Shown here piece by piece: positions 1-64,000 of a DNA stretch of 64,000 bases. A model generated the notes under the pieces. The model was not told the origin of the DNA. It did not search any database and worked only from the letters and a program-made list of their open reading frames with translations. The DNA is from Schmidtea polychroa (taxonomy: Eukaryota), in the NCBI GenBank assembly GCA_044892525.1, contig CM097888.1:34224001-34288000 (forward strand). The letters run 5' to 3'. Positions within the stretch are counted from its first letter, which is position 1. Each line of letters opens with the position of its first letter. The position numbers were made by a program, and so were the translations under genes.

Positions 1-681
1 CTCCCAACTTACACTCTCATTTTCGATTAACAGTCTTTCTGATTCTTCATCCGGTTTCTGTATAGGAACTATTTCTTCGACAATTTCAACAGTTTCACAT
101 TCAACTGTGCAGCAACTCAATTCAAACATCGACGACTCATCTATCACTTTCACTCCTACTGTCATTACACCGACTTCTACAGTTTCTATCATTTGATCTA
201 CTTGACTGTCTTCCATACTTATTGTATATTCACTTGAACATTCTACAATCACACTTCTGAATTCTGATCCGACCTCGACTGCCTTAGAACCAACATGACT
301 CAAGCTTTCTTCTATTGATTTACATTCAAAACTGCTTTCACTATCAACTGTCTCACACATGAACTCAGTCATTGTTTCTTGGAATTTTCCTACAGCTTCA
401 TGACTTGTTAGTGTATCAATGAATACAATATGCTTTTCTCCGAATGTTTCGCTTCCTACTTCAATCAATTTACTCTCTACACTACTACCGAAGTCAACTG
501 TGTCTTTTAGTTTTTCGAAAGAAACCTCTACAATTTCATTATCTTTCACTGATTCACTACTCATATCTATAGCCTCTGCTTTATAGTCAGTTAACTTATT
601 TGAAGCCTTTGTATCTTTTTCCAAGCTCGTATGTGTCAATTCGATTATTCCAGTTTCAGTTGCAATGTTTTCAGATTTGAT
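1..681 (-). CDS. Type-A module exon, partial (cut by the window edge)
   Basis: Acceptor at 682, open frame to position 1, homologous to the other A exons. Confidence 0.8.
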   Translation of the reverse strand, partial: MKSENIATETGIIELTHTSLEKDTKASNKLTDYKAEAIDMSSESVKDNEIVEVSFEKLKDTVDFGSSVESKLIEVGSETFGEKHIVFIDTLTSHEAVGKFQETMTEFMCETVDSESSFECKSIEESLSHVGSKAVEVGSEFRSVIVECSSEYTISMEDSQVDQMIETVEVGVMTVGVKVIDESSMFELSCCTVECETVEIVEEIVPIQKPDEESERLLIENESVSWE

Positions 682-39435: not shown

Positions 39436-39591
39436 TTTTTGCTGGGGCACTACTCGGTTGACCACTCACAATTCCACTTTCTAGTCTAGGAGATGAACGT
39501 CCATTACGATTATTTTGGTCACCACCGTGCCAACCCTGAGCCGAGCCCTGCATAACCTTCCCTCCAACATGATACCCGTGAGACACTTCAC

Positions 39592-39709
39592 GTTGGTACT
39601 GTACCATGCCGGCGAGACGCCAGTAAGCAGGTGAGCCCCTGCCTTAGGAGTACTCCTTACTGAGGCCTCGACTTACCATCCTCGACTGCCGATAGAAGGT
39701 CTTACGTCC
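39592..39709 (-). ncRNA. Candidate structured cis-RNA element, copy 1
   Basis: Covarying stems against copy 2; G-U wobbles favour the minus strand; function unknown. Confidence 0.55.
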
Positions 39710-40012
39710 GTCTAAGTGGAAAATTCACTATTCATCTTTGGTTGGGATTCACCTGGCTAATTCTACTGAAATCTCGAAAACAAAATAAAAACCAAAAACT
39801 TCCTACTCTCGTTATTATTGTCATACTAATACCGTTTATAAAACGAACTGATACCAAGACGCAAAGATTTATTTATAGCAATATCAAATCTATACAATAT
39901 CCGTAAAGTGTATACAGCACAAGATGACAAGATGAGAAAAACACAACACCATGATTTTAGTTCGTTGATTTCGCTATCGGCAGAATTATCCCACGAGTTA
40001 TTCTCATTTCTC

Positions 40013-40757
40013 TCAATCAGTGGCGGCTAACAGCTCTTCGAGGTCGAAAAACTCGGAAGCGTTCTCTTCCCAAGTGACTCCGGCGGCAGAGATAATTCGC
40101 CCAGTCACTTCAGATGTGGGGACTACTGTTACCGAAGGAACGTTGACTACATCTAAGAGGTTCGTTAGGGGTATATTGGACTTGGCAACCATCCGTTCTC
40201 GTTGTTTTCTTTTTCGTTCAGCCCTAGACATTTGCCGACGTTTCGGTTTGGATGTTGCTGTGTTGGTCGGAATCGCCTTAGACGTAGAGGCGAGCACCGG
40301 GGATACCTGACTTGTACCCATGAAAATGAGATCTGGTTGTTTGGGTGAGAGCTGAGTCTCTACACATTCCTTGCAGGACTTTTTGGCAGGAGACGACAAT
40401 TTTGACGAAGTATCATGTTGCGCCGGAAAGAGTTCGTTGGCGTCTTTGATCGGGATTTTTACTATCTTTCGGGTAGTAGTTGCCTGCAGATAAACTTTAT
40501 GCAGTGCTTCGGACTGCTCCTTGATCAAGCTCCTCTAGGAGCGACTTTCAGCGATCAAAGCATCTCGACAGTGCTCGCTCCGGTAGAGCTTCTTCTGGAT
40601 CTCCTTCATCCGAGCGGGACTAAACCATGTCCCTTCCAGCTCGTCTATCTTCCTTTTGTAACGTCCAATCTGGGTTTGCAGATCTTTGATAATGGCGTTT
40701 TTATCCGCGCAAGAGAAGCACGGACGTAACGCGGGTTTGGTAGTTGGTATCATGCTC
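40013..40757 (-). CDS. Hypothetical cargo protein of the insertion, with one in-frame TAG (40537-40535)
   Basis: ORFs 40535-40855 and 40013-40528 share a frame (...ESRS*RSLIKEQ...). Features: CFSC, coiled coil, CKEC, basic RAERKRKQR, acidic end. The start is uncertain. Confidence 0.45.
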
Positions 40758-43683
40758 GCTATAAAGAATAAGGTTAAGACGTAATATATGCATGGTTGAA
40801 GAAATACGTGGAATACGAATAATCGACTGCCCGTGGATATTCGGCCGATAAACAAAAATGAATCTCCTTACACGTCGATTTAAATTATTTACAAAATTAC
40901 TTGATTCAATTAAATAATACTAGTTTGACGGATAAAATTCTTTACTCAACCGAACTATACTAATTTGACGAATGCAATTCGATTAATACAGGTTCATGGG
41001 TACCTTTACAAATCCTAACCCTCTTCTTGTCGTTTCTGATACCGGTTAGTCGATATAGTTTATAACATTTAATACCATCAGAAAATAGTAACATTAGAAC
41101 GATCCTGAATAGGAATGTTATTACCCCCCCCCCCTTATCATAATTCATTTTGAAATGGTAACTTATTTATTACGGTTACTATTGGGAATTACTAAAGTGA
41201 AATTTTCTGCTGTTAACATATGCTATCATAATTCATTTTAAAAAATGGTAAATTATTTATTACGTTCGATGGCTACAATTTCTAGAGGGAATTTTTACAC
41301 CTAAATCTAATGTTATTTTAAGCATTCGAGATGATTAATTAGTGGATTATTCTGTACATGAGTTTGGTGAATTTTTACGCCTTAAGATATCGACTATGGA
41401 TTATCTACTCAGTTTGCACTGCAACATTTCTCAACCCCTATCTCAGTGACATACGCGGAATTGACAACTGGATTTCATTTCTCTCGAGGCAACTGCCAAT
41501 TCACTACCACTTGTCTGTTATTGACTTGTGAAAAATTCATGTCGTTATATCAGATGGCAGAATCAATATTTTGGTTGAAGATCCTTATCTCCCCCGGGTG
41601 TGTATTCTCAATGTCGGTTACATGACATGCATGTCTATCTGTCGTGTGTATCCTACTCTGTCAACGTGCTGCTGATCGTTTCACTACAAATTCCGTGAGT
41701 TTATCTTGTTCAATATGTTTTTTATCGTTATACGGTTACTCGCATAATCTACTCTCACCGTATGACTAGTCTCAGAAAATCGTTGATCTATGCTACGGTG
41801 ATCTCTCATCATGGATATTTTTCGTTTTCGTCGTTGTTACTGGGATTTTTCTGACTATCTAAATTATCGATGGAAGACAACAACAAGAAATTCTCTAGCA
41901 CTCGGCTCTCTTATTGTACTGTTGGAATTTATTCGTTTGGCAGGCTACTATGCTTCTCGCAATTATGATCCTATCTTGATGTATTCACTACGCTGAACGG
42001 ACGTGATGTTGAGTTGTTGTTTTCGAAAATAAATATCGGTTCGATGGAATCTACTCTTAACCATTCGCAATTTTCCCTCAAGTGTTATACGTTCAATAAT
42101 TTCGGGTAGACAAAGTGAAAGCCTAGTTCTCATTTGTAACGATAAATGTTGTTAGATGGATTTTTGGTATTTTACATTTTTATAATAATTAAATATTTAT
42201 AATAATTTTGGAATGTAATATTAGATGGATTTTTGTAGGCTCTTACATTTTTTAGTTTTGAAATAGTTGAAGTTTTAGAAGACTTTTGGAACATGACATG
42301 CATTCTGGACAGACTAAATGACCTTGGGTGTATGATAACGGAATTCCAGGCGAAATTAGTTTTACTGAGTTCGGAAAATAGACGTTGTAATAATCAATTT
42401 GATAAAACCATGTTTCCAGATGAAGTGCACTATGAGATGACGTTACCCTTGACGAAATTTACTAAATCATTGTCTGGATTTCATTTTCCAATAGGTGTAA
42501 GACTTACGAAAACGACTTGATGAAAGAATAATGCGACGCTCTCAATCACTGTGCGAATTCTCGAAAAATCCCTCCGTTCATACGGCTATCTCTGTGAAAT
42601 CATTGTCTGCCTGTTATTCCTTGAGCAATACCCCATTGTGATAATTTAGTCGCACCTTCAGCAATTGGACCCGTGAAGAAGCCTTCACATTTCGGCCCAA
42701 TCTAGCTGCGTGATTGAAAAACTCCATGTCCACCGGCTGAGCTCCCGAAGGCACCTCACACCATGACATGGAGTAGTTCAACTCCACGTTCCTCGTTACT
42801 TTAAACAGCATAAAAAGATACTTCATAAAAATAATCATAAAAATAGTTCAATTGCTCAATCATATCGAATTAATACTTTAAGATCTTTAAATCATTTAAT
42901 TTATCAAATTTACTAATCGGGATCAAGTGAAAAGAAAATCAAGTGTAACTTTCAAAATTTTAATTATTCAATAAATATACATAGTTATTGTTAACTTTAA
43001 AATTAAACAAAACAAATGAAATACAATCCCTTACTGTCGAGTTAGGCTGAATCGAAATATAAGGATCGTCTTTTCCAAAGTAGTTAACTGGTTTCGAAGC
43101 TTGTAGTCGGGTTCTATTGATAGTTGATTTGATGTGTGAGTCGTTGCTGTCGCTGAGTACTTATGAGGTTTTCGAATGGTTTCTCTGATTTATTGAAGGT
43201 TTTCTGGTTCTAGAGTCAGTCCTGTAATGTTTTCAAATTAACACTGACACTTATGCTAAAATTTCTTTACCTGTAATGTTTTCAAATTAACACTGATTTT
43301 TATGATTTTGGCGTCGGTTTATATACCAATTTTTCATTTTCGCGGACCAATCAAAATTGAGTACCGCTTATTTTATTAAATTAATTTGTTTTTTCCTATT
43401 TCTTTGGATATTTTACTTATTTTCCTATTTTTATTATATCTTTTATTTATTTCCTAAATTCCTTATTATTTATTGCGTTTTGCGGTATCTTATTCATTAT
43501 CTTATTACTTTATTTTTTTTAAATTTTTTAATTTTAATTTTTTGTTTTAATCTTTATATCCTATTTTATGGTTTATTTTATGTCTTGATTTATTTATTCC
43601 TAAAATTGGTGGTCTTATTTTATTTTATTCGCCTCTTGTCTATCTTATTTTTCGACGATTATGTTTTCCGATTCAGCCCAACA

Positions 43684-44494
43684 TTTTGAAGAATCCGTCA
43701 GGCCTCTTTTTGAAACATCTCTCCAACCATATGTTCATCATTTCTTCATCCATCCATCCCTTTGCGTTGGTTTGAATGATCACGTTGTTGGGAAATGCCT
43801 CTTTTGGCATGGTTTTCCTTTTGAAGATTATCATTGGAGGAAGCTTCCTTCCATCACCACAGCATGACAGCACGACCGTAAAGTGCGATTTCTCGTGGCC
43901 AGTTGTTCTTATGTTGATCGTTTTCTCACCTTTGTTATTGAGAGTTCGGCCCAGAGGAATATCGAAGGTGAGTGGAACTTCATCCATGTTGATAATATGA
44001 TCTGGAATGATTTCATATTTCGCGACTTTTGAATAAATGAATTCACGAAAATTCCGGATTTTTTCGACGTAGTCAGCAGGCAGTTGTTGACACATGGTCG
44101 TTCTTGATCTGATGCAGAGCTGCTGGCGCTTCATGAAACGAAAACACCAAGATGGTCCACCAATGAATTCATCAATTCCCAGATCATTCGCTATTTCTTT
44201 GGCCTTAAGACGAACTTGGACGGTTGATATTCCGCGACCTTGAGCTCGCTGCTCCACAATAAACTTAGAAAGCTGATTATCCAGTCCTGGCCATCTTGCT
44301 TTATGACCTCGATTCGCTCGCTTGGTTCTTTTTGTCAGCAACAGCGCATCTTTTGATTTTCGCCAGTCTCGAACTAGTTTTTCACTAATATTAAATCGCC
44401 GCTCAGTCGCTCGATTGCCGTTTTCCTCAGCAAATTTGATAGTTTGCAGCTTAAACTCGGCAGTGTACGATTTCCTTGTTTTGTTGGAACTCAT
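43684..44494 (-). CDS. pogo transposase, N-terminal part (Brinker-like HTH, CENP-B HTH, first catalytic D in NMDEVPLTFD)
   Basis: Translation MSSNKTRKSYTAEFKL...FIGGPSWCFRFMKR...NMDEVPLTFD...GWMDEE. Confidence 0.92.
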
Positions 44495-44991
44495 TTTGCA
44501 CTAAACTTTCGGAATATTTTAATTTGAAAAATTAAATTGTTTTGACAGGAAATCTATTACAGCGGTCTTATATACACTGCCATCTGGTGATTAAAGCTGA
44601 CATTTGTTTGATGGGCTCTCAAATTTCGGATCCAGGGTCCGAAATGACCAATCAGATCGGCAGTTAAACTGACACGCCAACATGGCGGCAGTTCGCCTAG
44701 CCTAGACATCCTGTAAGCTTGGTTTACGAAATAGGCTATATGGCGTCTTAGATATATTATAATGATGGTGATGGTTTATGATTGTATCATATTACAAAAA
44801 GGGCCTTTGATAACCACGGCATCAATTATCAGTTCATCAAAGACAGAACAGTCACAAATTGTTGATTACATTTAGATTTATTATAGAAACGGCACGTGAT
44901 TAAACTTATTATATAAGTCGCTCCTTTATTTAAGTCGCAGCACCGTCAGCGTCTGAAAAAAACCGCGACTTATAGACCGGAAATTACGGTA

Positions 44992-45284
44992 GGCATTTCG
45001 TTTTATTGATATAAATAATTTCTCTCTAAATTAAAAAGAAATATTCCACGTTATTAAATACTTGCGCTAAATGATTTTTGTTCTCACCTCTTCTCTTTAG
45101 TGTCTTTAATTAAACTTGGCGACCACCACCGAACAAAGTAAACATTTCCGCAGAGGCATGCTTATTACTGTATAAGTGCAACTTAAATAACGAAGCGACT
45201 TATATATTAATTTTTCCAAAATTTTAGCCATTTTTTACAATTGCGACTTATACACAGGAGCGACTTATTACCCGGAAATTACGG
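44992..45284 (+). mobile_element. 3' end of a host pogo copy (left remnant at about 38570-38616)
   Basis: Reverse complement of 38617-38909 with about 4 mismatches by my count. Ends in the TIR ...CCGGAAATTACGG followed by TA. Confidence 0.88.
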
Positions 45285-47598
45285 TAAATAAATATATGGG
45301 TACTAGAAAACGATGGATTAATAAATGACTTTGAATTACAACTTTGACTTTTAAAACTTAATAAAAAATATATAATTTATTCCATAATAGCTGCAGAAAT
45401 TAAAACAAAGAACTTAAAAACTATCGGAATCTTTTGTAAAAACAATAAATGTTATTAATTCCATCAGTACTTTACAATACAATTATTTCGAATACGAATT
45501 TATTGAAACAAGTAATTATGAAGTACTTGGAAACGACAATGATGAAAAATTTTGTAAAATCGTAAAATCACTGATTCTTGGTCAAAATCTAAAAGAGGAA
45601 AAATGAAATTCTACATTGAAATCAAAGTTCTCAGATTATAAACAAACAAAGAAAATAATATTCTTTCTACAAATGAAAAATAATCCAATGACTGAAAATC
45701 TATTAGTAAAATTGAGGGAAATTTTTATGGTATCAGTCTTCGATTTCAAGAACGCTATTATTGTTGAAGAATTTAATAAGAAAAACACAGTTTCTCTGCA
45801 GAATCTTATAAAAGACAAATACTTAAGAGATAGAAGTTTATCTGAAGCATTGCATAATTTATATTCAAATCATCTAAAACACTAGTGACAGGTCATTTTA
45901 TCAGAATTATCCACAAAATATTTCAAGATGCACAAGTTCTTCAAACGAAAAAATATTTATAAACAATTGCCAAAATGGGAGAAAAATTAATCGATCGAAG
46001 GAAAGTCACTTTCATTTTATTTAGAATTCTAGAAATTTGCAGCTTTGACAAAATTCCAATTCTCGGAAAGAATGATGCAAAAAGGTTAAGCAGCAATCGC
46101 ACGATAAATTCTGTTTCTATCACAGGATATTTGGTCTAAAAAAATGTCAACATCCATGTAAACAAGAAATAATGCCACGTGAAAACGAGAAAAGGTTCCA
46201 TTAAATTAGGTTAGTGGAATTTTCAAAGTTACATTTTTAGGTTTCGATCTAAGTAGATATAGGACCAAAGTATCGAGAAAGAGTATAGAGAACATCACAA
46301 CTATACAAAAACTATTAAATGTAAAAATCCCAAGATCATTCATAGGAGTTGTTGGCTACTACAGCTAGTTTACAGCAAACCTGTCAAAAATCGTCGCTTC
46401 TCTTCATGGTCTGATAACAAAAGTAGAAGTAAATAAAATTAATTTTATTTTGAACCATCACCACGACAATGCATTTCAGAAAGCAGAAGAAGCTCCAATG
46501 ACGACAACACCAATTGCATATCCTGATTTATATAAGTTTATATTTATATTGTGTTCAAATACATCTTCAACAGCAGTCAGAGCAAATCTTAATAAAAATT
46601 ATTCCAAAGAAAAACTTGAAACCAATTTCAATCTTTTCCAAAAAACTATCTAAATCAAAAATCAAATACTCAACGAATTACTCGCCATCTATTTAGGAAA
46701 AAAAAATTCCAAGCATTACTTACTATCAGGGATATTCACAACCAAAATAGACCATAAACCTCTGTTACACATAGTTTAAATAAAGGAACCATCAACTAAA
46801 CAGTGGAAAATAATTGAACACCTTTCTTATTTCACATTTTCCATTGAATACATCAAGAAAAAGGAAAATATGGTCTCGGATATGTTATAACGGTAACATT
46901 CAGACGAAATAAATGCTGTCAAACTGAACTGGGGTAGTTTTGGGTATTAATTTTCAGTCACGTTATATAGTTTCAACACGGTTACTTGTGTTAGTAGACA
47001 TGGGTGTATCGATGGTAAGAAAGCAAGATCATTTAGTGTTTCGAGATCAAGGTCAACATTGGAGTCATAGAAACGGAATGAATTATCAACCCGGTAAACC
47101 AACAGAACATTATAAAATATTTTTTACCTTTTATATTTTATTTTGTAGATTATAGAGAATTATTTTTCTATTCCAGTTGTTTTTTAACTTGTTTACCGTT
47201 TTTACCTGTTTGTTAAAAGTGGAAAATATTTTTATTTATTGAATGTTTTGTATAACATGCACAAATGAATTTTAGCAATAATTAACTTCAGGATCGAACT
47301 ATTTTTGTGGATAAATAAATTTAATATTCCATTAGGATTTTGTAAAAGTTGTTTTTATCTATAAATAAAAATTTGTGTTGAAACGTGATTAAAACTACTA
47401 AAACATTAATGTTATTAATGTAATACTTTCAAGATTCATTCATAAGAATAGCTCATTATTAAAAACATTTAATGAAATTATTTTTCATTTATTGTAATTT
47501 TGAAATTGATTTCAAAAAGTTAAAACATTCTTTCTTTAAATAATGTAATTTTATAACAATTATTTAAAATAATATTTTACCTCTAAAGTTCGGAAACT

Positions 47599-50208
47599 AT
47601 GATATTGTTAAAAATCTTTCTTCTGACCTGTTTATATATAGATTATTTTCAATGTCCACCAGTTCAACCTGCTAAAAAACAGGACGAATCAGATGTAGAG
47701 TTTGACAAATTAGTAATATTTCAGTCTTTATTTATTAATTTTATAAGATTGAATTTAGTTAAATTCAGTAGATTATGCATCGTATTTGTCAGAAGTAATG
47801 AATGAGTTGAATAAGGATGAACAATTCAGCAAACATATCAATTCCGCAAATTCATCAGTATAAATTTTAAATGTCTATCGCAAATTAATAATTATTTAGG
47901 AATCAGTCTCTAAAGCTTTGAATGTAGTTTCACCAGATATCAGAACTAAGTTAGATGAATTGAAGCGTTTAGAAATTATACGTTTGAATAAATTAGAAAA
48001 AGAAGTAAGGAAACGTAAATCGGATAAATATCATCCACATGAAATGCCAATGCCGCCTGTAAAACCTGTTGACATAACTCATCTTGATGATATTAATCCG
48101 GAATCATTTAGTCCAGATGATTTAAAAAAATTGATTGATAGAGTAATTTTTTAGATTTTTTAAAAATTTTTAAGTATGTTTTTATATTAAAATTTATAAT
48201 TAAATGTGATAATATCAATTGAGTATATTATCTGGAATTTTTCTATAAGTAATTCGCTTAACTGTTAACTAAACCAATATTGTAAACATCGATAAGAAAT
48301 AATATGCAGTAGAATATAATTTATAAAGAGTATTATATTAACTGTTATTATTTATGTATATCAACGTGATATTAGATGTGTTCAAGAAAATCAGAGAATT
48401 GTGTACAAAGGAATTCCTAAGATGGCAAAAAATTTTTGTTAAGGTTGGTTGATGTTGGCTTCTTCAGAATTAGTCATTTGCTTACTTGAATAAGATTTGA
48501 ATTTCTAATTTCTAATATTTCTAATAATTATTTAATCGATATGGATACATAGCTCTCTGCCGAGGCTATGGAGTGACCTGTTAGTTTCTTCAATATCGGT
48601 AGGTTTGAGTTTGTCTACCGATACTCGTTAGTAATTGAGTTTCAAATGTTTTAAAATCTAAATTTCGGCTAATTACCTTGTGTAGTCCGTCATATACGTG
48701 AGTGGGTTCCTTCAGGTCACTTAGTAAGAATTGTGAAAATTAATGGAAGCTCATTTGCCGAACTTCAGGAGGCATCATCTGAATGTGCTCTCATGGTTGC
48801 TTTAAGAGTTTTATGAAACCTTTCAACTTTGTAATTGCATTGGAGATGATATGGCGTTGTGTTTTGACACATATCTCTGTATGCAGCCGAGATAAATTGC
48901 TTGCCGTTGTCGATGAAGATGATTTCTGGAGCTGCATTACTCCATAACATAGTTTAAATAATTTGATTATAATAAATACCAACTCGATTAAACGAAGAAA
49001 ATCGATACACAGGAGGATCACAGTTGCAGAAAAAAAATACACGAGAAAAGTTATAGTTTAAAAGATTTAAGATTTTAAACCGAAACTTGGAATGGTTGAA
49101 AGCTTTTAATGAAATGTCGCTGTAATTAATATAAATATTAAATTATCAATATCAAATTAATATCAAGTTATCAATAATATATTTTATTTATAAAACATTT
49201 ACTGAGATATTATTAGATTAATTATTCTTTAATATTACGGCTTCGTTAAAAATTTTGATTAACAACAATTTGGTGCACTTCGAGTGTTGTAATGAACTTG
49301 CTATCGAAATGCAAGAAATCGGTCAACAATTAAACATGAAAGATTATGTACCCATGTAGGACAAATTGGTTGAAGATTTTGATGCCAGATTTTCTGATTT
49401 TGATGCAATTAAACCAGAACTAAAATTATTTAATAATCCGACTACCATCGACGTTGAAGAAACCGATATTAAATATCAAATGGAATTATGTCAATTGCAA
49501 GCTGACGAATTTTTTAAATCAAGGCTGGAGACAGGGGTAAATTTATTCAAAATGTTTCCAAACGACAAATATCCAAAATTGCGCGATTTGGGCTTAAAAT
49601 TAATTTCTATGTTTGGTAGTACATATATTTGTGAACGAGCATTTTCTGACATGAAATATATCAAATCTAAATATAGAAATTCAATGGCCGACAAAACACT
49701 AGAAGAAATTTTAAGAATTTCTTCAACTAAAATTGATATAAATATCGAAGTTCTTGTAGCTGCCCATATAAATAAGCAGTTTTCACATTAATAAATATTA
49801 TGTTAATATTTTTTTTCTTTTTTTTCTTGAACTATGAACTAATAAAATACTAAAAAAAATTATAAATGACTTTTAATTAAAATTTATAGTATATGGCCCG
49901 CCAAACCTACAAAAAGATAAAATTGGCACACATGTACAGAAAAGTTGGACAGCGCTGGTTAAAATTGATGTAATATTTTGTAATTTAAATAAGATTCCTA
50001 AGGATATGAAAAGCGAATGGTGAGATAAATAACACTGAAAATCCATGTAAGGATGATAAGCCTAAATTTGTTTTGGTATTGCCATAATCGACAGATTTTA
50101 CAGATTATAAAGGAATAATATTTAAATTATAATGAGTTATATTTAATCGATCTCTAGAGTTATGATCTCTATTCATTTTAGGTCTATTATTTTTAATTAT
50201 TTTGTCTC

Positions 50209-50287
<79 letters not shown>

Positions 50288-53200: not shown

Positions 53201-56200
53201 CTTTCTGTTAGTAAATTTGAAGTTATTTACATAATCGAAAATTTACTAATAGCAATGTTTATTTTTTAAACAAACTTTTACAACCAATTTTCAGCTTCAA
53301 ACCAAATACTTTTCAAAGCATTATCAAAAATTTTAATATTTGCAAAAACCTCATTTTAAATTATAAAATACATTTTTAATATTTTTTAACAATTTAATTA
53401 TTTACTATTTCTATTTATTTTAAACAATTTTAAATATCTAATTCTCAACTGAAGACTTCTTCGCAAAAATATATATTACAGCTTCAGATTTTTATGAGTT
53501 GTGAGTTACGTAGCTGATTTAGAAAAGATTTCCATATGTATGATAAAGGAAGTTTTGTTTGATTTCTATACAATTTCAAAAATTATTAAATATTATAATT
53601 TTTCTTAAATTTAGTTCATTTTGTGTTTATTGCAATTATTTGTTTGGATATTCAATTGAAAACCTTTTTTAAAATAATAAAAAATCTATTCTAAAATTTA
53701 TACTAGATTTAAAATAATAATAATCAATTATTTCCATGTGCTTTCACATTATGACTATTGGAAGTTTAATTAATTAAACTTAGTGTTAAAAGTCTATTTT
53801 GAAACCATAATTTTCTACTTTATAATATTCAAATCAATAAATTAAATTTATTTAAAAGAAATTGTAAAATCATATAAAAATATGCATAATTTAATAAAAA
53901 AATCAGGTTATCGATTAAAATAAAAAATTAATATGAATAAATTCAAATCAATAATTTCAATTATTTTAAATATTTAAAATAATAAAAACAGTTTAAAAAG
54001 AAATAAATGGAAAAATTGGATAGTATAAGCATTATTCGATAGGAAAAGTCGATTTTCAGCTAGTTGTTACTGGAATATCTTTGACAAACTTTTACAACCA
54101 ATTTTCAGCTTCGAACCAAATATTTTACAAAACATCAAAAATTTTAATATTTACAAAAGCCTCATTTTAAATTATAAAATACATTTTTAATATTAAAAAT
54201 TCATTTCTGATTTTACCAATTTAATTATTTACTATTTCAATTTATTTTAAACTATTTTAAATATATAATTCTCAACTGAAGACCTCTTCGCCAAAATATA
54301 TATTACAGCTTCAGATTTTTATGATTCGTCAGAAAACTTTTTATTTGTCATTCTACAACGTTAGCAAAATTTATTAATTATAGAGTAAACAATTGAATAG
54401 TTTAATAGTGCATGAAACTATCGGAACCGATTGCCTACAATACAATGCCTACTAATAGCAAATATTTTAGTCGTTATCAGCGTTAATTGACGCTAAAATT
54501 AATAATTTTGTGAAAATATTTCTATCTGTATTTTGCAAAAATCGATATATAAGTAAGGCGATTTCACATTTAATTACAGATTTAAATATGATCGTTGTTA
54601 TAAATGATCTTGAATACTTTATTTACTCGTTTTTGTTAATTATTTGATTTGGACTAATTATTATCTGGATATTGATTTAGGGAAGTATTGAACAGCTGCA
54701 AACCGTGTGGCAAAAAGAAGACCAAATGACTGATTCTTTTGATCCTAAGACCTTTTTCTATTTGCATGGTAAATTTTTTTTTAATGTTTAAAATTTAATT
54801 ATAACATCTGTTCATTATTATTATTATTATAAATTCGCAAAGTTCATATTATTTTTAGTGTTTTTCAATCTGATTAGTCATTGTGCTATATTTTTATCAA
54901 TAATAGAAATTAAACTTCATGTATTGCACATAGTTATTGATTAGAGTTTCATGATATTTTTTTTAATTTGAAATATGTGTTTGATTAATTTTTTTTCATT
55001 AAAATAATATTTTACATAATTTTTTTCAAATTAGAACAATTTTAAAATTTGGACATTTTTATCAATTTAATATTTTATAATTATTGCAAAATTTGATTTG
55101 ATTAATTAAAACAAAATTTAAATAATTAAACATTTTATAATTATAGCAAATTTATAAAATGTTTACCAATTTAGACAAATTTAAAAATTGTATTAATCAA
55201 TAAAAACAAATTTTTAATATTTAACATTTTTATTAATTAAAACAATTTTTAAATAATTTAACATTTTATAATTATAGTAAAATTTTTTAATTTGTTTTTT
55301 TCGGATTTGGACAAATTTAAGATTTGTAATAATCAATAAAACAAATTTTAATAAATAATTAAATTATTTTTTAAAATCTGAACATATTAATAATTAAAAC
55401 AATTTTTTAACATTTATAATTATAGAAATTTTTAATATATTTTCCGATTTAGACAAATTTAAAAATTGTAATAATCAATTAAAACAACATTTTAAAACAT
55501 TTTTTATAGATTAAAACAAATTTTAACAAACAATTTAGGCATTTTTAATAATTTAAAATGTTTTCCGATTTAGACAAATTTAAAAATTTTTTAATATTTA
55601 AAGATTTTTATAAATTAAAACAAATTTTATTAAATAATTTAGTTATTTTTTAAAATCCGAAATTTTATTAATTAAAACAATTTAAGCATTTTTAATAATT
55701 TAAAATGTTTTCCGATATAGACAAATTTAAAAATTGTATTAATCTATAAAATCAAATTTGTAATATTTGACATTTATAATATTTGAACATTTTATTAATT
55801 AAAACAATTTTAAAATTAGGGATTTTTAATAATTAAATATTTTATATATATAACAAATTTTTAAAATTTAAATGTTTTCATTAACTAAAAGAATTTTAAA
55901 ATTACACATTTTTATTAATTAAAACAATTTTTTAAATAATTAAATATTTTATAATTACAGAAATTTTTAATATTTTTTTTAATTAAAACAAAATTTAAAT
56001 AAATAACCATTTTAGAAATTTTCAATATGTCAGACAAATTTAAAATTTAGATTTATCAATAAAAACAAAATTTGAATATTTTTACTAATTTAAACAAATT
56101 TGGACATTTTTATCATTTATGTTGCTGTCAAGAAATAATCATTTTCTATACTTGGAATTCATAATGTAAATTTACTGTCGATGTTAGATGTCAATGGAGA

Positions 56201-56721
56201 CGGAAATCTCGATGTTGCTGAAATTGAAACTCTAATGCAAAAAGAAGTAATATAAGCATTATCTACAAAAGAAGATATTTATTCTGATTTAGTTAGACAA
56301 AGCTTATGATCCAAATGACAATGCTACAGATGTTATTGAACGTTATCATGAAATGTCGAGAATGAGAAAACAATTTCTAGAACATGCAGATCTTGATAAA
56401 AACCATTTGATTTCACTGCAAGAATTCATGCAATGGACGAAGAGTGCTGAAGCTATTCAAAACAATGAATGGAAGGTCTTTTGATTTTATTCAGAAAATA
56501 GATTGTGTACTGTGTTCACTAGACTCAAGAAGAATTGGAAAAAAATTATTCTAAAGAAGAATTCGATCAATTCTACCAGGATTATCTTAGTCGTCATCTG
56601 GAATTGCAACAGCCAGTTACATTATTTTGATATAATTTCATTATAATTTTATATAAATATTTAGCCTGTTTATAATCCACCGACACCTCCTAGTCAGTCT
56701 TTAAATACACAAGCAAAATGA
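47599..56721 (+). CDS. NUCB2: Nucleobindin (NUCB1/NUCB2-like secreted/Golgi EF-hand Ca2+-binding protein), 9 exons, about 376 aa
   Basis: Exons 47599-47712, 47759-47857, 47900-48142, 51717-51911, 54681-54768, 56188-56246, 56293-56475, 56523-56615, 56665-56721. Signal peptide; IRTKLDELKR; GSIEQLQTVW...FDPKTFFYLH; EF-hands DVNGDGNLDVAE and DLDKNHLISLQE. The symbol is nominal (NUCB1 vs NUCB2 not resolved). Confidence 0.93.
48700..48960 (-). mobile_element. LTR retrotransposon integrase core fragment
   Basis: PEIIFIDNGKQF ... VERFHKTLK (rve D and E motifs). Confidence 0.8.
49270..49957 (+). mobile_element. hAT (Buster/GTF2IRD2-like) transposase C-terminus with probable 3' TIR
   Basis: ORF 49366-49791 contains SMFGSTYICERAFSDMKYIKSKYRN; the segment ends ...AAAAGTTGGACAGCGCTG. 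Confidence 0.85.
50213..50285. repeat. (AT)n microsatellite
   Basis: Direct reading. Confidence 0.99.
50350..50590 (+). mobile_element. pogo transposase C-terminal fragment
   Basis: LIDWVDSAWEQLSHATMISGFSKPG matches the W..AW....I..GF.K motif. Confidence 0.65.
50740..51260 (+). mobile_element. Degenerate Mutator (MULE)-like transposase fragment
   Basis: LLADTAYGSSNGFKSRF...AMCWFQMRKAV resembles the MULE D and CxxH region. Confidence 0.55.
51539..51603 (+). mobile_element. Penelope-like GIY-YIG endonuclease fragment
   Basis: LVYQFTCNGCNVTYIGKTS. Confidence 0.75.
51930..52330. repeat. A/T-only low-complexity tract rich in (TAA)n
   Basis: Direct reading. Confidence 0.9.
52661..54330. repeat. 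Diverged tandem duplication (about 860 + 810 bp) in a NUCB intron
   Basis: agaaaagatttcc.tatgta starts at 52661 and 53521; both copies end in ttacagcttcagatttttatga. Confidence 0.85.
55000..56110. repeat. Degenerate AT-rich minisatellite
   Basis: Core ttccgatttagacaaatttaaaaattgtaataatc recurs at about 55167, 55301, 55441, 55561 and 55709. Confidence 0.75.
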
Positions 56722-56842
56722 AATAAAATTTTTCATGATTTATTAACAATAAATTTTTAATAAATTATTTGGTTTCGAATTTTTTAAGATTTAATTGGAA
56801 ATTTTTGTTGAATATCGATCTTATTTGATGAATTTTGATTGA

Positions 56843-56945
56843 TGTATTGATTATCGATCCTATTTAATGAATTTCGACTGATAATGTATTGATTATCGAT
56901 CCTATTTAACAAATTTCGACTGATAATGTATTGATTATCGATTTT
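56843..56945. repeat. 42-bp tandem repeat (about 2.5 copies) downstream of NUCB
   Basis: tgtattgattatcgatcctatttaa..aatttcgactgataa units. Confidence 0.85.
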
Positions 56946-57799
56946 GATTGAGTTAGTTTTCGATTTGTCAATTTAATTTCATTGATTTTATTGAATTTTT
57001 CAATAGAATAATTTTTTGGTTGAGGTTGATTATCGATTTTTACTCAATTTTTGACTGATAAATCTATAGAATTAGCTTGTGGTTAATTGCATTAAAATTT
57101 CTCTGGCAGTGTTGAACAAAAAATGAAGTAAAATCAATTTTTGGAATTCCCTTCATTTTAAATGTTATAATATTTAGAGGAAATTTGGTGTTTACGTTTT
57201 GGTATGAGTTTGAAAAAATAAATATATTGTGTTGTTGAATTTATTTTATTTATATTGAAGTTTTGCTAAAATGGACAAAGGACGAATAGAAGTAATAGAA
57301 GAATTTGTTGATCTTTACGAAAGGAAGCTATTTTTCTATTTTACAACCATAATTTTAAAATGGCTGAATTTACCTTTAAATGATTGCTGTAATACCGAGA
57401 GAAACATATTTCCAATCAATGTGAATGATTCTTTTGGTTACGTCGCTTTTAGCAGTGAAGCGGTAGTATTGGTGGGTTACGAGTGGGGGAACTCTTTCGC
57501 TTTTAAACTTCATTAACCATTTTCTTTCACTATATTCGAGTCCCCTAGTAAACACACATAACTATTTTATTTGACCACTAAATCACGTAGTAAGTGACGT
57601 TGGTACTGCGCTTTAGCGGGTGACTGTCAGTAAAAGCTGAGCGCTCCAATGAGAACTAGTCACTGGGTTCATCGGCTATCGTAGAAGATTTTGTGCCTCA
57701 CTTTACATTGTCCCTTCATCATTTCCCTATGTGCTTCTTACTTCGAACCTTTATTTAAGCAAATGTCGAAAACTTCAAGATTGGAATTTTCGTCGAATT

Positions 57800-60020
57800 G
57801 TCTGAGATTATGTTGATAAAATCACTTTAGTTGTTCATTTTAGGCCGCGAGATGCTTTAAAAACTATATTTAATTTATTGTTTAACTAGTTCGAATTATA
57901 TTTAAATATTTTCGTGAGGAGATACCTTTCTTTGGCCATAGGAAAGTAACGCTGTCGTAATTTGCTCAATCTATTTTATTTACCTTTTATCTTTAATATA
58001 ACCGTTTCTTAAGGAAATAGTCTTTTCAATTTGATTAATTATTTCGGCTATACTACTAAGACAAGATTTACGCATCTTATTAAAATAAAACAGTTTATCA
58101 TAATTTATTTTTTCTCAATTATTTACATTTTCAATCATTTCATTAAATCATTATTGTTATTTTTCTGGACCTTCTTGCTGGATGAACACTTCCTTTCGAA
58201 TTTTCCAGGACGAGGCTTGCATGCTTTCTTTGGTCCTGGAGTTGCTGTTGGTATCCTGGAGATCAGAGCTGCTATATGTGATAACATATCTGTCTCGGAG
58301 TACAACGGTACTCTTCCAACTCCAGCTTGATATGATTTCCTGCACGCAGCTCCAGGATTTTTTGAGACTGATTACGGATTGTTACTTTCAAATCTCCGAT
58401 AGTCGCTTGATCCTCAGATCAAGTTTATCGATATGATGGTAGGATGCTATGGTGTTATGGTTGGCGTTGAAGCTTTCTAAGCATCTCGGGTATTTCTCAG
58501 CAATTTTGGAAATCAGCACGTTGTGCAGCGTTTTGTACAATTTGTAAGTTGTATCGCAAAATCCTGTGATGCAATTATGAACGTGAATATTTGAATTGGT
58601 AAAACGATTATTAGGAATGTTATCATTGTTCACTCGCAACGCTAATATCCTATTTTGGCAATCGACTTAATATCCAAAAGCATCGAAGAAATCCGCTCCA
58701 AGAATTGGTTGTAAAGTCTCAGCAACGGTAAAAGCCCAATCTAAATGCTTTTCAATGTTTTTAACTAAAACTTGAGATTTACAATTCCATAGGTTGGGAT
58801 ATCTGAGACATTGGCAGCTCGCTATTTTCCGGTTGGAACAGTAAATGACACAAAAGTATTCGGTAAGATTGATAGGCATGAACCGGTGTCGATCAAGAAG
58901 GAGATTGTTGTAGTTATGCGATCGGAAGTTTGGAAAGTTGCAGGTAAAATAAAAATGCCGCAAGATATTTGACACTTTGGTTTAGCAGATTTTCCAAAAG
59001 ATCTTAAAAGTTTTTTTAAAAGTGCAATCCTCTAAACATTTTTGAGCTTTCTCTTTTAAAATCGAATGGACAATACAGGTTGAAATGATTTTGAGATCGG
59101 TCTTATTCAGCCAATTACAACCTATGCAGCATTTCTGGGAGCAATTTATAAATTTATAATGAAATTCGCAGATTAATCTGCCTCTAGATTGAGATCTTTT
59201 CGTATCTCTGTCATTGGGGGTAATTTTTATTTGAACTACTTCTACTTGTAATGATGCTACTTGATCGGATGTCTAACAATGTGGTGTCAGTGTTGTGAAC
59301 CGATACTACTAAAGACTCTGGAAGATTTGTCATTATCCTATCGACAGTAGTAGCAAGTTCGTCTAAATTTGTTTTGTCTGACCCGGCAAGTATTGCACGA
59401 ACAGTAGGTGGTAAAACCGAAATAAAAAACTGCGAAATATTGTCGTGTTTGAAAATGAGACTGGATGCAATCTCCCGAGATCGTTTTGAGTTTTCTTTAA
59501 AAACAGTAAAGGGGATAAATTGCCTAATAATTGTGTTCGAAAATAGGAGTTGAAGAGGTCAGTTTCGGAAGGTTTGTAAAATTCTGTAACTAGTGATTTT
59601 ATTTTGTTGTACATATTTGAAGACCTTTACTATTTTGCTGCCCCAGTGACTGTAATAGTTCTGTGGGTAAGAAAGACATACGGATATGTGTTTTCACACA
59701 GGAAGAGATGTGATTGTTAGAGAAAGACAATTTTGTCAATAGCAATCAAGTGTTGGGAACGCCATCTGTCTAAAAAGAAACTACGCTGAGTGACAGGTGA
59801 CACAAGAGAGATATTTTGACCACGGTCGGTATTGATTGTATCATTGTTACCCCATAAGAGTCTCTGTCTAAATTGTATAGGATAATTAAAAATCGACAAT
59901 TGTTGCAAGGTGTGGTAGTCTCGTGGAATTTTCGTTTTAGTGCAGAGATAAAAAGAATGACAAGGTATTTTGCATCTCTTTTTTCTAGTCGAGTTCCATA
60001 ACCGACTATAGTTAGATACA
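57800..60020 (-). mobile_element. Degenerate Ty3/Gypsy remnant (gag + protease; candidate 5' LTR at about 59651-60020)
   Basis: Protease FLIDTGSCLSILP (58905-58861) and WAFTVAETLQPILGADFF; gag-like QLLGNLSPLLFL. The TGTA...TACA segment is followed on the minus strand by PBS-like GTCACTGGGGC. Boundaries are approximate. Confidence 0.75.
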
Positions 60021-60199
60021 GTTTACCACCATGCAGAGTATCTGGTGCTTATATAAATACAAGATTCAGAGCTGCTAGGAGCAAAATCTGGAGTTATTTG
60101 CAAACACGCCAATTCACATAATTTCAGGAAATTGAAGACATTTTTTACCTATTCGTTTTATGAAAATAATTATTCCTGTGGAATGTTATACTTTAAATT

Positions 60200-60402
60200 C
60201 TCACTAATTGTGTCTGTCTTCATGTGAAGAGTTTTTTCAAAACAGAAATGTGTAAAGAACTATTTGCGATCAACAATAGGACAATCAAGGCTTTCTGATC
60301 TGGTTTTATTATCAATTGAAATTGATATGGTGAAAGATATTGATTTTAATGGAGTGATTGAAAGGTTTTCAGCATTGAAGGCCAGGAAAGAAAAATTTTA
60401 AA
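60200..60402 (+). mobile_element. hAT (ZMYM1-like) C-terminal dimerisation fragment
   Basis: RVFSKQKCVKNYLRSTIGQSRLSDLVLLSIE...FSALKARK. Confidence 0.8.
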
Positions 60403-61028
60403 TAAAGCTTTATGTTAAAAATAACAATAACTCAACTTAGAAGCAGTTCTCCGATGCTTAAACCTTGATACTTTTACCGTAAATTATGTTATTTAATTTG
60501 CTATTTTCTTAAGTCTTTATTAACATTTTGACTTATTTTACAAACATTATTGCCGATTAGGGATGGTCTAGTACAGGAAGATTAGGAAGAGATCCATGAC
60601 TCCATGACTCCATAAAATTCTGGGCTCAGAGAGGGTAAATGCATGACACCAACCCAAGAACCCCTTTGATAGTGATTTCTGTTCAAAGCTTTAGACAGAT
60701 TTAAAAATGACTTTAAATACTAAAAGATACATTCTAATAAATTGAAGGCATCACTAGAATGTCCCCCGTTTTACTTTCATATTTATAAATCAAGCAAATT
60801 AGATATATATTATCAAAAAGGAAATCTTTCAAAATTGAACTTTGTAGTTCATTAAAATTGATAAATTTAAACATCAAGTGGTTAATGGATTTATTTTATA
60901 TCTAATATAAAAATAATTTGATATATTTTTTAAACTTTATCACAGATAAAATTGTCCCAAGATTTAATAGTATAATTTTATTTCAAAAAATAAGTTGCTG
61001 ACAATTGAAAATTTTTCAAAAAACTTTG

Positions 61029-61661
61029 TTATGGAAATAATTCTTTGGATATTGTATAATTATAATTGTCCAGAATATTTTTAATATGTTCCTCCCAATT
61101 GGCAATGAAATCCTTCGTTGACCAAAAGTGACTTCTCCCTTTATCGTCAATGAAATTGGCCGATGGTTTGAAAAATATTGTCTTATAAAAGTTTCTATCG
61201 TTTCGAAGTTGCGGTAGAATATGTTTGACAATGTAGGATTTGTTTTGAACCAACAAATGTTTTTCATAGTTCGTCAAATTACCAAAAGAAATTCGTTCTC
61301 GTTGAATAGACTTCAAAAGTGAAATTATATGTTTTCTAATTTCATTTTGTTTCTGTTGATTTAAACATTTTTTGATTCGCTCATAGTTTTCGAGCTCTTT
61401 TCTGCACATTTCTTTCGAGCGATTCAATTGTTTCAAATTCTGGTCTAACGCCTTTTTGGACAAATCTATTTGTCTGTTGCCGAATTTCATCAATTGAAAA
61501 TGTTGAAAATAGAGATATTTATTCTGATCATTGTTGTAACACATTTCGAATTTTAAGTCATGATCGGGATCAATTGGAGATTGGTTCGAGGAGATATCTT
61601 TGCATTTATTTGAATTCGACAATTTCAATGGAATATTGTGAATTGGTGGTAAATAATTCAT
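61029..61661 (-). CDS. Hypothetical 210-aa protein with a central coiled coil
   Basis: ATG-initiated 633-nt ORF in AT-rich DNA; no family recognised. Confidence 0.45.
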   Translation of the reverse strand: MNYLPPIHNIPLKLSNSNKCKDISSNQSPIDPDHDLKFEMCYNNDQNKYLYFQHFQLMKFGNRQIDLSKKALDQNLKQLNRSKEMCRKELENYERIKKCLNQQKQNEIRKHIISLLKSIQRERISFGNLTNYEKHLLVQNKSYIVKHILPQLRNDRNFYKTIFFKPSANFIDDKGRSHFWSTKDFIANWEEHIKNILDNYNYTISKELFP

Positions 61662-62164
61662 TGGCAGATTATACGAAAGTGAAAATTACGTAATAGAAAT
61701 TATTTGATTTACTAAACCAAACATCAACTAATATATTGTTGCCATAGATAATTTTCGAAGAAATTAATTATTTTGTTTTCATTATGTCAGCGATTGTCAT
61801 CATGTTTGTAGAAAAATCAAATTTCTCTTTTTGTTTTTACTTATTGTTCACTATTTCTATTTAATAAAATTAAATCATTAATTTAATTACTTTTGATGAT
61901 TTAATGGAATTTTTTTCTCTTTCCAAAATTAAACATCCTAATGAAATTTCAGTTAATTATTTTTATTCAATAATTAACATTTTTAAAAAAATAAAGTTTT
62001 ATTTAAATTTTTCAACTTTTTTTGTTTAATTGGAATTTCAATAGTTTGACTTAAATTTCTTTATATAAATTATTTTGATCTTCATTCCATTTTTAAATTA
62101 TCGATCAATATTATGTTTTAGATTTAACACCAATTTACGATAGGTCAAATGTCTTAACATATTA

Positions 62165-62971
62165 CAGTGAAACCTCTCTAATAGGACCACCCTTGGTTCC
62201 GGACCAAAAGTGGTCTTTACTAGAGGTGGTCCTATTAGAGAGGGTTTTATTTTTATAAAGAAAACTAGACTTAAATTGAAGATTTTATTATTAAAACTCA
62301 TATAATGTTGTTTGTCTCTTCGATTTGGCTTCACTGTTATCAAAAACTATCATATTCGTCAACTTTTGTTCAGCTTGAAACATTATATCAACTAATTTAT
62401 TGTCACCCAGTTCCATTCCAAGATTCTTAATCTGCTGAATATAAGATATAAGATGTTTTTAAATCAATTTTTGGTAAATCAGATTCTTCTTCGTTTGGTT
62501 CAGAAACCTCACTTGATGCATCATCCAAACTAGTGTAAGAAGAAATCAGTTTTTCTTCCCAGTCACTCTCAAAACAGTTTTGTTCAAGAGAAATGTCAAG
62601 CTCACTAAGGTTAAAGTCGAAATCAAGCTTCTTAGCTAAATCTGTTACGTCTTGTTCGATCTCAGTTATAATATCTGGTTTAACCGTGATATCCAAGCAG
62701 AACCCACATTTTTTAAAACAGCTCTCAACTGTTGACGGCTTAACAGCATTCCAAGACTCCTTTACAAACTCAACAACATTAGAGAGATTGATTTTTTTCA
62801 ACAACTCTTCTACATTGGAAGTTGTTTCATAAAACGACAATAATGAAGAGAGCATTCTTTTTTGATATTCCAGCTTGAAAGATCTAATTATACCTTGGTC
62901 TAAAGGCTGAGATTTGCTGGTAGTATTTGCAGGAAGAAATGCAAATTTTATATTGCTTAAATCCATTTTAG
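62165..62971 (-). mobile_element. Tigger/pogo 3' half (transposase C-terminus and TIR)
   Basis: FLPANTTSKSQPLDQGIIRSFK...FVKESWNAV...CFKKCGF. TA then CAGTGAAACCTCTCTAATAGGACCACC, with an inverted subterminal copy. Confidence 0.88.
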
Positions 62972-63790
62972 TGTTGGTTACTTAGGGGTGTGCCCTTTTT
63001 ACAATTTAAAATACGTTAGGGGTAATCATAATCGTTCGACTCTTTCCTAAGCACCTCCATGACTATTGCAATTTAAACCATTTGTGTACCCATGGCGACG
63101 ACCATGTTGGTACTGTACACAAAGGTGAAAAAACAATGAGCAGGTGAGCTCTATTACTAAAACTACTCCCCATTGGATTTTCTTTTCGGGTTCTAGACTG
63201 CCGATAGAAGGTCTTACGTCCTTATTCACTATATATGCTATTTTTGGATCGATGTTGGTCCTCAATTACGGGTATTTTTAATTGTTCTCTTATAAAATTT
63301 TGTGCAGGGATCCGTCCTTATTTCCCAGCTAGTAATTATTGTTCTACACTTCCTACAATATTTAAATTATCCTTTGAAAAATTTGCGCAGGGATTGGCCC
63401 TTATTTTCAAGTTAATCCACACTTGCCATAATATTTAAATTGTCCTTCAAAGATTTTGAGCAGGGATCTGCCTGTGTTTCTAATCCTGAGCTGTCGGAAA
63501 AATTACATAAATCTAACTTTATCCATCTTCAACTGGTCTCAACTATTCCATCTTTACTCCTAACTCACTTATGTCTATAAAACATAAAGGTGACTAAGCC
63601 ACTTACATTATCTAAATCTGAATAAAATCCTAAACGACCTAAAATGACATTACACTCCCTAATCATTCCTATCACTATCACTGTCGTCTAACTCGATGGA
63701 CTCAACCGGCGAAATATCTGCCGACCAACAGCACGTAGTGCCGCCCGTCCACAAACTTTTCCCCAGCCCAGACCATCGACACAATCAACA
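62972..63790. mobile_element. TGTTGG-starting element abutting the Tigger transposase; related to 39440-43683; right end uncertain
   Basis: TG terminus at the point where transposase coding stops. It shares conserved blocks with 39592-39709 at a similar distance from the end. No target duplication confirmed. Confidence 0.6.
63106..63221 (-). ncRNA. Candidate structured cis-RNA element, copy 2
   Basis: Identical 26-nt and 13-nt flanking blocks, and compensatory stem changes relative to copy 1. Confidence 0.55.
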
Positions 63791-64000
63791 AATAATATAA
63801 TTGAATTCAATAAAAACTATGATTTAGAATAAATGAATTTAAACCATTAAAAAGGATCACTAAAGAAAATTTAACCGAAACATTAATAGCATATAAAATT
63901 TATTAATTAAAATACTCCATAAAAATTACAGAAAACAATAACAAATAAATTACCACATCCACGTTGGCATAAAATCGAAACTGAGAGTTCTGCAAATTAA

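Follow-up and report, generated by a model that had tools for sequence, protein, structure and literature searches.

A 64,000-nucleotide stretch of the Schmidtea polychroa genome (NCBI GenBank assembly GCA_044892525.1, contig CM097888.1, positions 34,224,001 to 34,288,000; hereafter the window) raises the question of what role is played by a bulged RNA hairpin that two retroelements preserve on the minus strand, with stems that differ in sequence but keep pairing. An original prediction, made from the letters alone, proposed a selected cis-acting RNA that acts in packaging, priming, 3′ processing, or self-cleavage. We find that the hairpin is the middle one of three and that the structured RNA family to which it belongs is real and is not catalogued in Rfam. 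It lies near the 3′ end of the long terminal repeats (LTRs) of a clade of retroelements, where it likely serves to dock the tRNA-Pro(UGG) primer of reverse transcription, which is a type of function that is already known.

A three-hairpin RNA supported by covariation

The framework described for the two copies was confirmed. An identical 26-mer occupies positions 39684-39709 and 63196-63221 of the minus strand, with more than six mismatches at every other site in the window, and an identical 13-mer occupies positions 39592-39604 and 63106-63118 of the same strand. The spacers agree to within 1 nt (14 and 13 nt, and 9 and 8 nt), and the motif lies 152 and 134 nt from the LTR-terminal CA (ends 39440 and 62972). 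Across the clade, the two words are not invariant as had been supposed, and only short cores of them are kept. The 26-mer is itself a hairpin (H1), with a 3-5-bp stem, a 5′ bulge, a CC/GG stem, and a UUCUA loop. The 13-mer is the 5′ half of another hairpin (H3), whose internal loop AGUACCAA faces a single G. With the hairpin first described (H2) between them, the motif is, as covariation supports, a three-hairpin RNA near the LTR 3′ end. Its predicted parts in the two copies are as follows.

39684..39708, minus strand: copy 1 H1, with GAC/GUC stem, 5′ bulge, CC/GG stem, and conserved loop UUCUA
39614..39669, minus strand: copy 1 H2 (the hairpin first described), with a C-loop-shaped 3x1 internal loop at 39651-39653 / 39630-39634
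39564..39612, minus strand: copy 1 H3, with internal loop AGUACCAA opposite G
63196..63220, minus strand: copy 2 H1
63127..63182, minus strand: copy 2 H2, with a C-loop-shaped loop and a GUAA apical loop
63081..63123, minus strand: copy 2 H3

Parsing of all examined loci yielded 172 matches, of which 119 are distinct, and these fall into 37 clusters at 88% identity or 57 at 94% identity. We used MAFFT to align 40 cluster representatives together with the two reported copies (n = 42), by sequence only. In this alignment, the 33 proposed pairs are formed in 86.4% of cells, compared with 70.7% in shuffles (0/500), double changes are present in 25 of the 33 pairs, and controls with slid partners pair at 34-41%; the structure was derived from the same sequences that were scored, which favors it in these pairing statistics. 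On a tree, we count 39-50 (about 44) independent compensatory events, versus 2.2 ± 1.5 for rate-matched wrong partners (maximum 8 in 900). Compensatory changes are also present at the H1 pairs 16-40, 17-39, and 18-38. H2 and H3 adopt the same register in all seven single-sequence minimum-free-energy folds of LTR ends (three groups, with A, B, and D types split 3, 2, and 2), and H1 is labile in such folds. Among the proposed pairs, 117 cells are G-U and 48 are A-C, an imbalance indicating that the sense (minus) strand is the one that folds, as had been argued from G-U wobbles. Together, covariation and the G-U excess lend good support to the proposal of a selected cis-acting RNA on this strand.

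Within H2, the outer and middle stems covary as originally described. The same cannot be said of the GAG/CUC helix with UA and ACCUG bulges that had been placed between them and the apical stem. This helix pairs in 61.9% of cells versus 60.8% in shuffles (122/500), and we dropped it because its pairing is at chance level. The apical register proposed for copy 1 depends on a G-to-C change that is not seen in the other family-A copies listed. The register that is supported comprises G73-C96 (A-U in 12 of 42), A75-U92, G76-C91, U77·G90, and 78-89. In this arrangement, G73-C96 and A75-U92 enclose a 3x1 loop, C-A-C facing one variable pyrimidine, which has the shape of a C-loop as defined in PMC9516175 (further background is in PMC2441787). 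C93 and A94 are each kept in 42/42 sequences and C95 in 36/42, and A75-U92 is formed in 40/42. Pair 73-96 is G-C in 26 and A-U in 12 sequences, and position 74 is U in 37 and C in 5. Conservation of the loops is in part a product of selection, as copies failing the H2 and H3 anchors were excluded from the alignment; loci picked by their primer-binding site (PBS) provide an independent check (see below).

Compact, strongly conserved loops joined by variable stems might also suggest a new class of self-cleaving ribozyme, possibly one related to that of hepatitis delta virus (HDV), and head-to-tail arrays of the elements do exist. HDV-like ribozymes form a nested double pseudoknot in which P2 lies between P1 and P3, with a conserved P1.1 and a J4/2 cytosine. 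H1 recalls P3-L3 of these RNAs, and UUC of its loop could pair with the GAA that follows. However, only 4-6 nt lie between the H1 outer stem and the CC/GG stem, where the HDV fold needs J1/2 and P2, and the GAA is not conserved in family A; we rejected an HDV-like fold for these reasons. Resemblances to HDV-like, twister-sister, hatchet, hairpin, and VS ribozymes, judged by eye against consensus features, were likewise limited to isolated words and were set aside. In agreement with the original failure to recognize a known ribozyme, neither the motif in the window (E ≤ 1) nor six further copies (E ≤ 5) have an Rfam match. Cleavage in the unique 5′ region (U5) of the LTR would presumably sever the strong-stop template from the PBS. 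In addition, ordinary polyadenylation upstream seems to produce the 3′ end (one contig), and one RNA-type contig, which may be DNA, spans both H1 and H2. Thus, the motif is probably not a new ribozyme, and we consider a self-cleaving function very unlikely.

Association with a tRNA-Pro primer-binding site

Downstream of the motif is a PBS that matches tRNA-Pro(UGG) over the full 18 nt. In all 20 loci picked by this PBS alone, five of which were in the training set of our covariance model, the motif is present upstream. Genes for tRNA-Pro with UGG and CGG anticodons differ only at positions 34 and 59, and among 1,073 PBS copies, 1,054 are of the UGG type and 19 of the CGG type. Genome-wide counts such as these rest on sequence patterns rather than on a covariance-model scan. 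About 616 of 2,170 tRNA-Pro gene matches are CGG, and an exact tRNA-Pro(AGG) pattern has no match in the genome. The PBS bias toward UGG beyond its gene share is suggestive only, because this share reflects gene number and not tRNA abundance.

Several other features of priming in these elements deserve mention. The tRNA-Pro genes occur in long tandem arrays with a 475-bp unit for UGG and a 442-bp unit for CGG (L190-L197, L234-L239). One of the 19 CGG-type PBS copies (G000:C4:34300623-34300641) is located about 12.6 kb past the end of the window, at the distance expected for the 5′ end of the very element that carries copy 2. Usually, 1-3 nt separate an LTR from its PBS. In the PBS flanks of L002-L119, the PBS begins 5-8 nt from the LTR-terminal CA, which implies a long overhang trimmed by integrase. 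A polypurine tract is absent before the 3′ LTR (L252, L253-L256, L257-L260, L031; window 64630 onward, L033). At this location, families A and E have in common a 7-bp hairpin, then a GC-rich word, then GAGTGATT; at least the latter two are also present in family B. These elements may prime plus-strand synthesis in an unusual way.

Sequences complementary to other parts of the tRNA are found in and near the motif, and we call these the T-arm box and the D-arm box. The T-arm box of copy 2 resembles a primer activation signal (PAS).

39482..39497, minus strand: D-arm box of copy 1, predicted to form a 15-bp duplex with the tRNA-Pro D-arm (-20.8 kcal/mol)
63017..63024, minus strand: D-arm box core of copy 2, UACCCCUA, with eight Watson-Crick pairs to tRNA-Pro 13-20
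63187..63193, minus strand: T-arm box of copy 2, GAACCCG, complementary to the tRNA-Pro T-arm

Families B, C, D, and E carry the T-arm box, GAACCC, in the linker from H1 to H2, approximately 190-250 nt from the PBS. In A-type families, a D-arm box of 14-16 bp is found some 55 nt ahead of the PBS, and family B has a shorter match. Complementarity reaches p < 0.05 for the T-arm in 32 of 57 representatives and for the D-arm in 23 of 57, and the two sets of families are largely complementary. A variable-loop box is present upstream in 18 of 57. Of 37 representatives outside family A, 26 have an exact T-arm box and 7 a G-U-compatible one; the box is broken in 3 and missing from 1. At the D-arm box positions facing tRNA G15-G18, all 60 cells (15 representatives) are C or U. 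In addition, CCAA of the H3 loop shows complementarity to U33-G36 in the anticodon loop of the UGG tRNA; against CGG, it would leave a mismatch. Its four positions are kept in 39, 41, 41, and 42 of the 42 sequences, in an alignment anchored on CCAA, and in 20/20 of the PBS-picked loci.

Location of the motif within the element RNA

In family A, a polyadenylation signal precedes the motif.

39868..39873, minus strand: AATAAA of family A, 164 nt upstream of the H1 core

An AATAAA is similarly found 140-200 nt upstream of H1 in 22 of 44 representatives. In the family-B LTR, a TATA box is at position 571, AATAAA at 733, and the start of H1 at 1416. No RNA match was found for the family-A LTR stretch. 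Four sequencing runs guessed to be RNA were compared with family B only, and one contig among them, from a related subfamily, has a poly(A) end at about position 747 of the family-B LTR, 14 nt after the start of AATAAA and about 670 nt upstream of the motif. We conclude that the motif is probably in U5, downstream of the poly(A) signals in most families, in which case it would be present only in the 5′ leader of the RNA. The family-A LTR carries CCAAT/TATA about 350 nt in and AATAAA about 130 nt later (window 43195-43355, minus strand). If these set the repeat region (R), then U5 would be about 3.7 kb and strong-stop DNA exceptionally long.

The same observations bear on a role in 3′ processing or splicing, either by control of polyadenylation through U1 binding or as a splice donor. 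The H1 bulge of families A, B, and E carries a donor-like GUAAG, the opposite H2 strand reads AG/GTGAG, and in family C an AATAAA comes right after H3 (five of six representatives). However, GUAAG is absent in families C and D, a canonical joint was not seen among the family-B contigs of the four runs, and the family-B poly(A) site is far from the motif, as given above. Such a role is highly improbable. Of the functions originally proposed, priming has gained positive evidence from sequence, whereas 3′ processing and self-cleavage are disfavored.

A candidate docking platform for the primer

Given these findings, we consider it likely, at a little better than even, that the three-hairpin element is a platform where the tRNA-Pro(UGG) primer docks and reverse transcription is initiated. 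Annealing of the tRNA 3′ end to the PBS would free the T-arm, and in families B, C, D, and E this arm could then pair with the box that separates H1 from H2. In addition or instead, the D-arm could pair with the box in the terminal U5 hairpin in A, B, and some others. CCAA of the H3 loop would meet the anticodon loop of the UGG tRNA. An element protein that chaperones the complex, either Gag/nucleocapsid (NC) or reverse transcriptase (RT), might be bound by the C-loop-shaped H2 and by the H1 loop UUCUA, and this binding could also serve packaging. The motif is retained in family B, where pol was not found.

A more ambitious version holds that the folded RNA recognizes an entire tRNA, that H3 reads the anticodon by displaying a proline codon, much as a T-box riboswitch does, and that interchangeable T-arm and D-arm boxes unwind the tRNA. 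By this route, an element would pick the UGG tRNA over the CGG tRNA that differs from it at two positions. We regard this proposal as doubtful.

A number of points weigh against docking, beginning with the tRNA side. The windows for the T-arm, D-arm, and variable loop were chosen after inspection. An unbiased scan across 31 tRNA windows scored best at the D-arm (z -2.9), at the acceptor strand (z -2.4, largely from the PBS-like word in H2), and at the T-arm (z -1.8), and these signals are marginal after multiple testing and come from related sequences. Most tRNAs contain the T-arm word, and GAACCC would stay G-U-compatible through the majority of transitions. Neither box is universal, as the T-arm box is absent in family A and the D-arm box is not significant in C, D, and E. 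CCAA comprises only 4 nt, and among the loci examined we found no family that has the motif with a different primer. The UGG bias could stem from tRNA abundance or from the mismatch at position 59 alone. Regarding the RNA itself, an all-pairs test against a tree-based null, which has little power, placed only pair 78-89 above the null and gave no credible pseudoknot; the family-C AATAAA could put the motif in R there; and tRNA pairing does not account for the conserved loops of H1 and H2. Furthermore, a comparable tRNA box predicted in Ty1, box 2.1, was not confirmed in particles (PMC3592414).

Left unaccounted for by tRNA pairing, the H1 and H2 loops are probably protein-binding, which makes packaging the main rival and perhaps a second role. 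The hairpins would then be mainly a packaging or dimerization signal bound by Gag/NC, and the tRNA-matching boxes a separate, minor matter. In keeping with this, the C-loop geometry of the conserved loops is of a protein-binding type, and C-loops are described as binding protein in viroids (PMC9516175). Moreover, H2 and H3 are present in all families and each tRNA-matching box in some only, the motif is kept by family B, which retains an open reading frame (ORF) with a zinc knuckle, and the motif is probably found only at the 5′ end of the RNA. Yet the T-arm box occupies a fixed place inside the motif (33 of 57 best duplexes fall in one 10-nt bin), and inspection of the alignment did not reveal a conserved palindrome or kissing loop. 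By eye, a palindrome around the H3 loop is present in families A and D only, and an exact partner for the H1 loop, TAGAAG, was found at no shared position near the PBS in four elements. Packaging as the main function strikes us as clearly less probable than docking, and the two roles are not mutually exclusive.

Knowledge of how LTR elements choose and load primer tRNAs comes from a small set of viruses and yeast elements and was gained for the most part by mutagenizing single genomes. This clade is a natural experiment, with thousands of copies, many families, a covariation-supported fold with a recognizable 3D motif, and tRNA-arm boxes that swap between families. These features open primer selection to direct tests on short RNAs.

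Host elements and genomic distribution

The window derives from a 781-Mb AT-rich animal genome and includes the following further features of the host elements.

39440..43683, minus strand: solo LTR of family A with copy 1 (4,244 bp, TG...CA, 4-bp AAAA target duplication)
40013..40867, minus strand: LTR-borne ORF of family A, in two stop-separated pieces here and about 260 aa in relatives
57554..57710, minus strand: third, decayed motif copy (family C; covariance-model score 70.2 bits)
57665..57671, minus strand: T-arm box of the family-C copy, whose LTR end is near 57470
62972..64000, minus strand: 3′ LTR of family B with copy 2, running on to 64629 (1,658 bp)

The solo LTR with copy 1 splits a pogo/Tigger-type transposase gene. 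Copy 2 resides in a family-B element of about 15 kb that is inserted in another pogo-type transposase gene and in which we found no pol. The one long ORF that we found in it encodes the zinc knuckle and occupies the internal region's 3′ end (L031:3721-6351 and L033:1661-4291, both minus strand), and the roughly 8 kb before it have no long sense-strand ORF. A variant of the 13-mer at 57599-57611 pointed to the third, older copy. Copies 1 and 2, both in the training set, score 153.8 and 146 bits with the covariance model, and the background is at most 8.7 bits.

The hosts of copies 1 and 2 had been described as otherwise dissimilar. In fact, the LTRs of both families start with TGTTGGGCTGAA, and their elements have the same PBS and a common signal ahead of the 3′ LTR. 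Sharing these sequences, the two elements are related members of one clade. Of two complete relatives of the family-A LTR, one measures 30.4 kb and has 4.18-kb LTRs, and the other measures 30.0 kb and has LTRs of 3.7 kb. LTRs of this type head ORFs with Pfam matches to a viral fusion glycoprotein, protease, RT, RNase H, integrase, ankyrin, and MATH, and the fusion-glycoprotein (env-like) region is placed between gag and pol. This arrangement fits a giant Burro-like Gypsy family as the host of copy 1, matched by description to the planarian Burro/GYPSM1 elements (PMC6431247).

An orphan ORF of about 260 aa inside the LTR, directly upstream of the conserved AATAAA, is found in families A, D, and E (also L095:4630-5418, minus strand). 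It has no Pfam match, and its best atlas match (score 0.84) is not convincing. The product of this ORF might bind the motif as a nuclear export or RNA localization element, similar to a constitutive transport element (CTE) or a Rec response element (RcRE). An unspliced RNA of approximately 26-30 kb presumably must leave the nucleus, and C-loops are reported to act as trafficking signals in viroids (PMC9516175). However, export would leave both the tRNA complementarity and the fixed distance to the PBS unexplained, and we think this role quite unlikely.

The motif is abundant. The exact 26-mer has 327 matches in the genome, many as same-strand pairs about 13.5 kb apart, and a degenerate H1 core has 4,129 matches versus 1 for a reversed control. 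Among 79 H1-core matches examined, 69 also have the H2 and H3 anchors, and the covariance model matches 9 of the 10 loci that failed them. The motif is also a sensitive way to recognize Burro-type LTRs, solo LTRs and pol-less derivatives among them. Family E (L100 and L119, compared with L020 and copy 2) combines an A-type apical H2 with a B-type linker carrying the T-arm box, which suggests module exchange between families. Head-to-tail arrays of elements are also present: one, at G000:C1:77255531-77323366, repeats every 13.56 kb and has six motif copies, and the other, at C1:39424152-39471576, repeats every 15.8 kb and has four PBS copies. Elsewhere in the window, positions 1-4200 and 5470-27260 are two tandem arrays of 1,169-bp and 1,500-bp units that are 98-100% identical, each unit with a minus-strand frame of 361 or 334 aa that has no Pfam match.

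Outside the source genome, a three-anchor pattern matches 32 viral and 4 metagenome loci, and none of the 36 scores with the covariance model. We judged these to be chance matches rather than homologues, several of them on phage tRNA-Arg anticodon loops. The H1 loop word CUUCUA (window 39692-39699, minus strand) equals the start of the phage tRNA-Arg(UCU) anticodon loop, which is possibly a coincidence and possibly anticodon mimicry. Several of the phage contigs (L200, L207, L209, L210, about 645-770) have a conserved, structured-looking stretch of about 110 nt directly 3′ of the tRNA-Arg(UCU) gene. This stretch has no Rfam match, is unrelated to the LTR motif, and could be a tRNA-associated RNA.

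Comparison with known systems

Among titles and the openings of abstracts, no paper describing this RNA was found; that scope does not take in Grohme et al. 2018, the original Burro paper, or its supplements, nor Repbase, and these could mention LTR features. The specifier loop of a T-box riboswitch is an internal loop with a codon plus a purine next to an AGUA word, and it matches the anticodon of the bound tRNA. The H3 internal loop likewise has a codon and a purine beside AGUA. However, it belongs to a eukaryotic retroelement, its AGUA and codon are on the same strand, and it has no antiterminator, and homology is not implied.

H2 shares with the C-loop 3D motif (PMC9516175) a 3x1 loop within a hairpin, a long strand that starts with C, two closing Watson-Crick pairs, and one free variable base. 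In a C-loop, crossed tWH and cWS pairs form two base triads. The match made here is by sequence and fold, and it would require a C-G rather than a C-A trans pair in most families. The Burro/GYPSM1 elements correspond to the hosts in size (about 30 kb), LTR length (3.7-4.2 kb), a fusion glycoprotein between gag and pol, the order protease, RT, RNase H, and integrase, and the presence of ankyrin and MATH, but the account we drew upon describes proteins, and LTR RNA structure is absent from the portion consulted (PMC6431247). Similarly, Burro expression is shown in a source whose consulted portion lacks LTR detail (PMC8532177).

Known ribozyme-bearing retroelements use hammerhead or HDV-like motifs (PMC6765202). 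Like retrozymes and their relatives (PMC6765202; PMC4918200), the elements described here have a structured RNA inside the LTR and non-autonomous derivatives. They differ in having no hammerhead or HDV match, in the probable U5 position of the motif, and in its presence in autonomous 30-kb elements as well.

The closest parallels are with known primer-docking systems. In HIV-1, the PAS and an A-rich loop, both upstream of an 18-nt PBS, pair with the primer T-arm and anticodon loop (PMC11251516). The putative planarian T-arm box instead belongs to a domain of three hairpins and is about 190-250 nt away from the PBS, some families have a 14-16-bp D-arm box in its place, and the candidate anticodon contact, as suggested by sequence, is a codon-like CCAA in an internal loop. 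Among LTR retrotransposons, boxes 0, 1, and 2.1 of Ty1 and the bipartite PBS of Ty3 offer precedents for pairing of element RNA, beyond the PBS, with the primer's T and D arms (PMC3592414, PMC5371799). The Ty1 boxes are downstream of a 10-nt PBS (PMC3592414), and in Ty3 the partner sequence lies at the RNA 3′ end (PMC5371799), whereas the putative boxes of the planarian elements are upstream of an 18-nt PBS, within the LTR.

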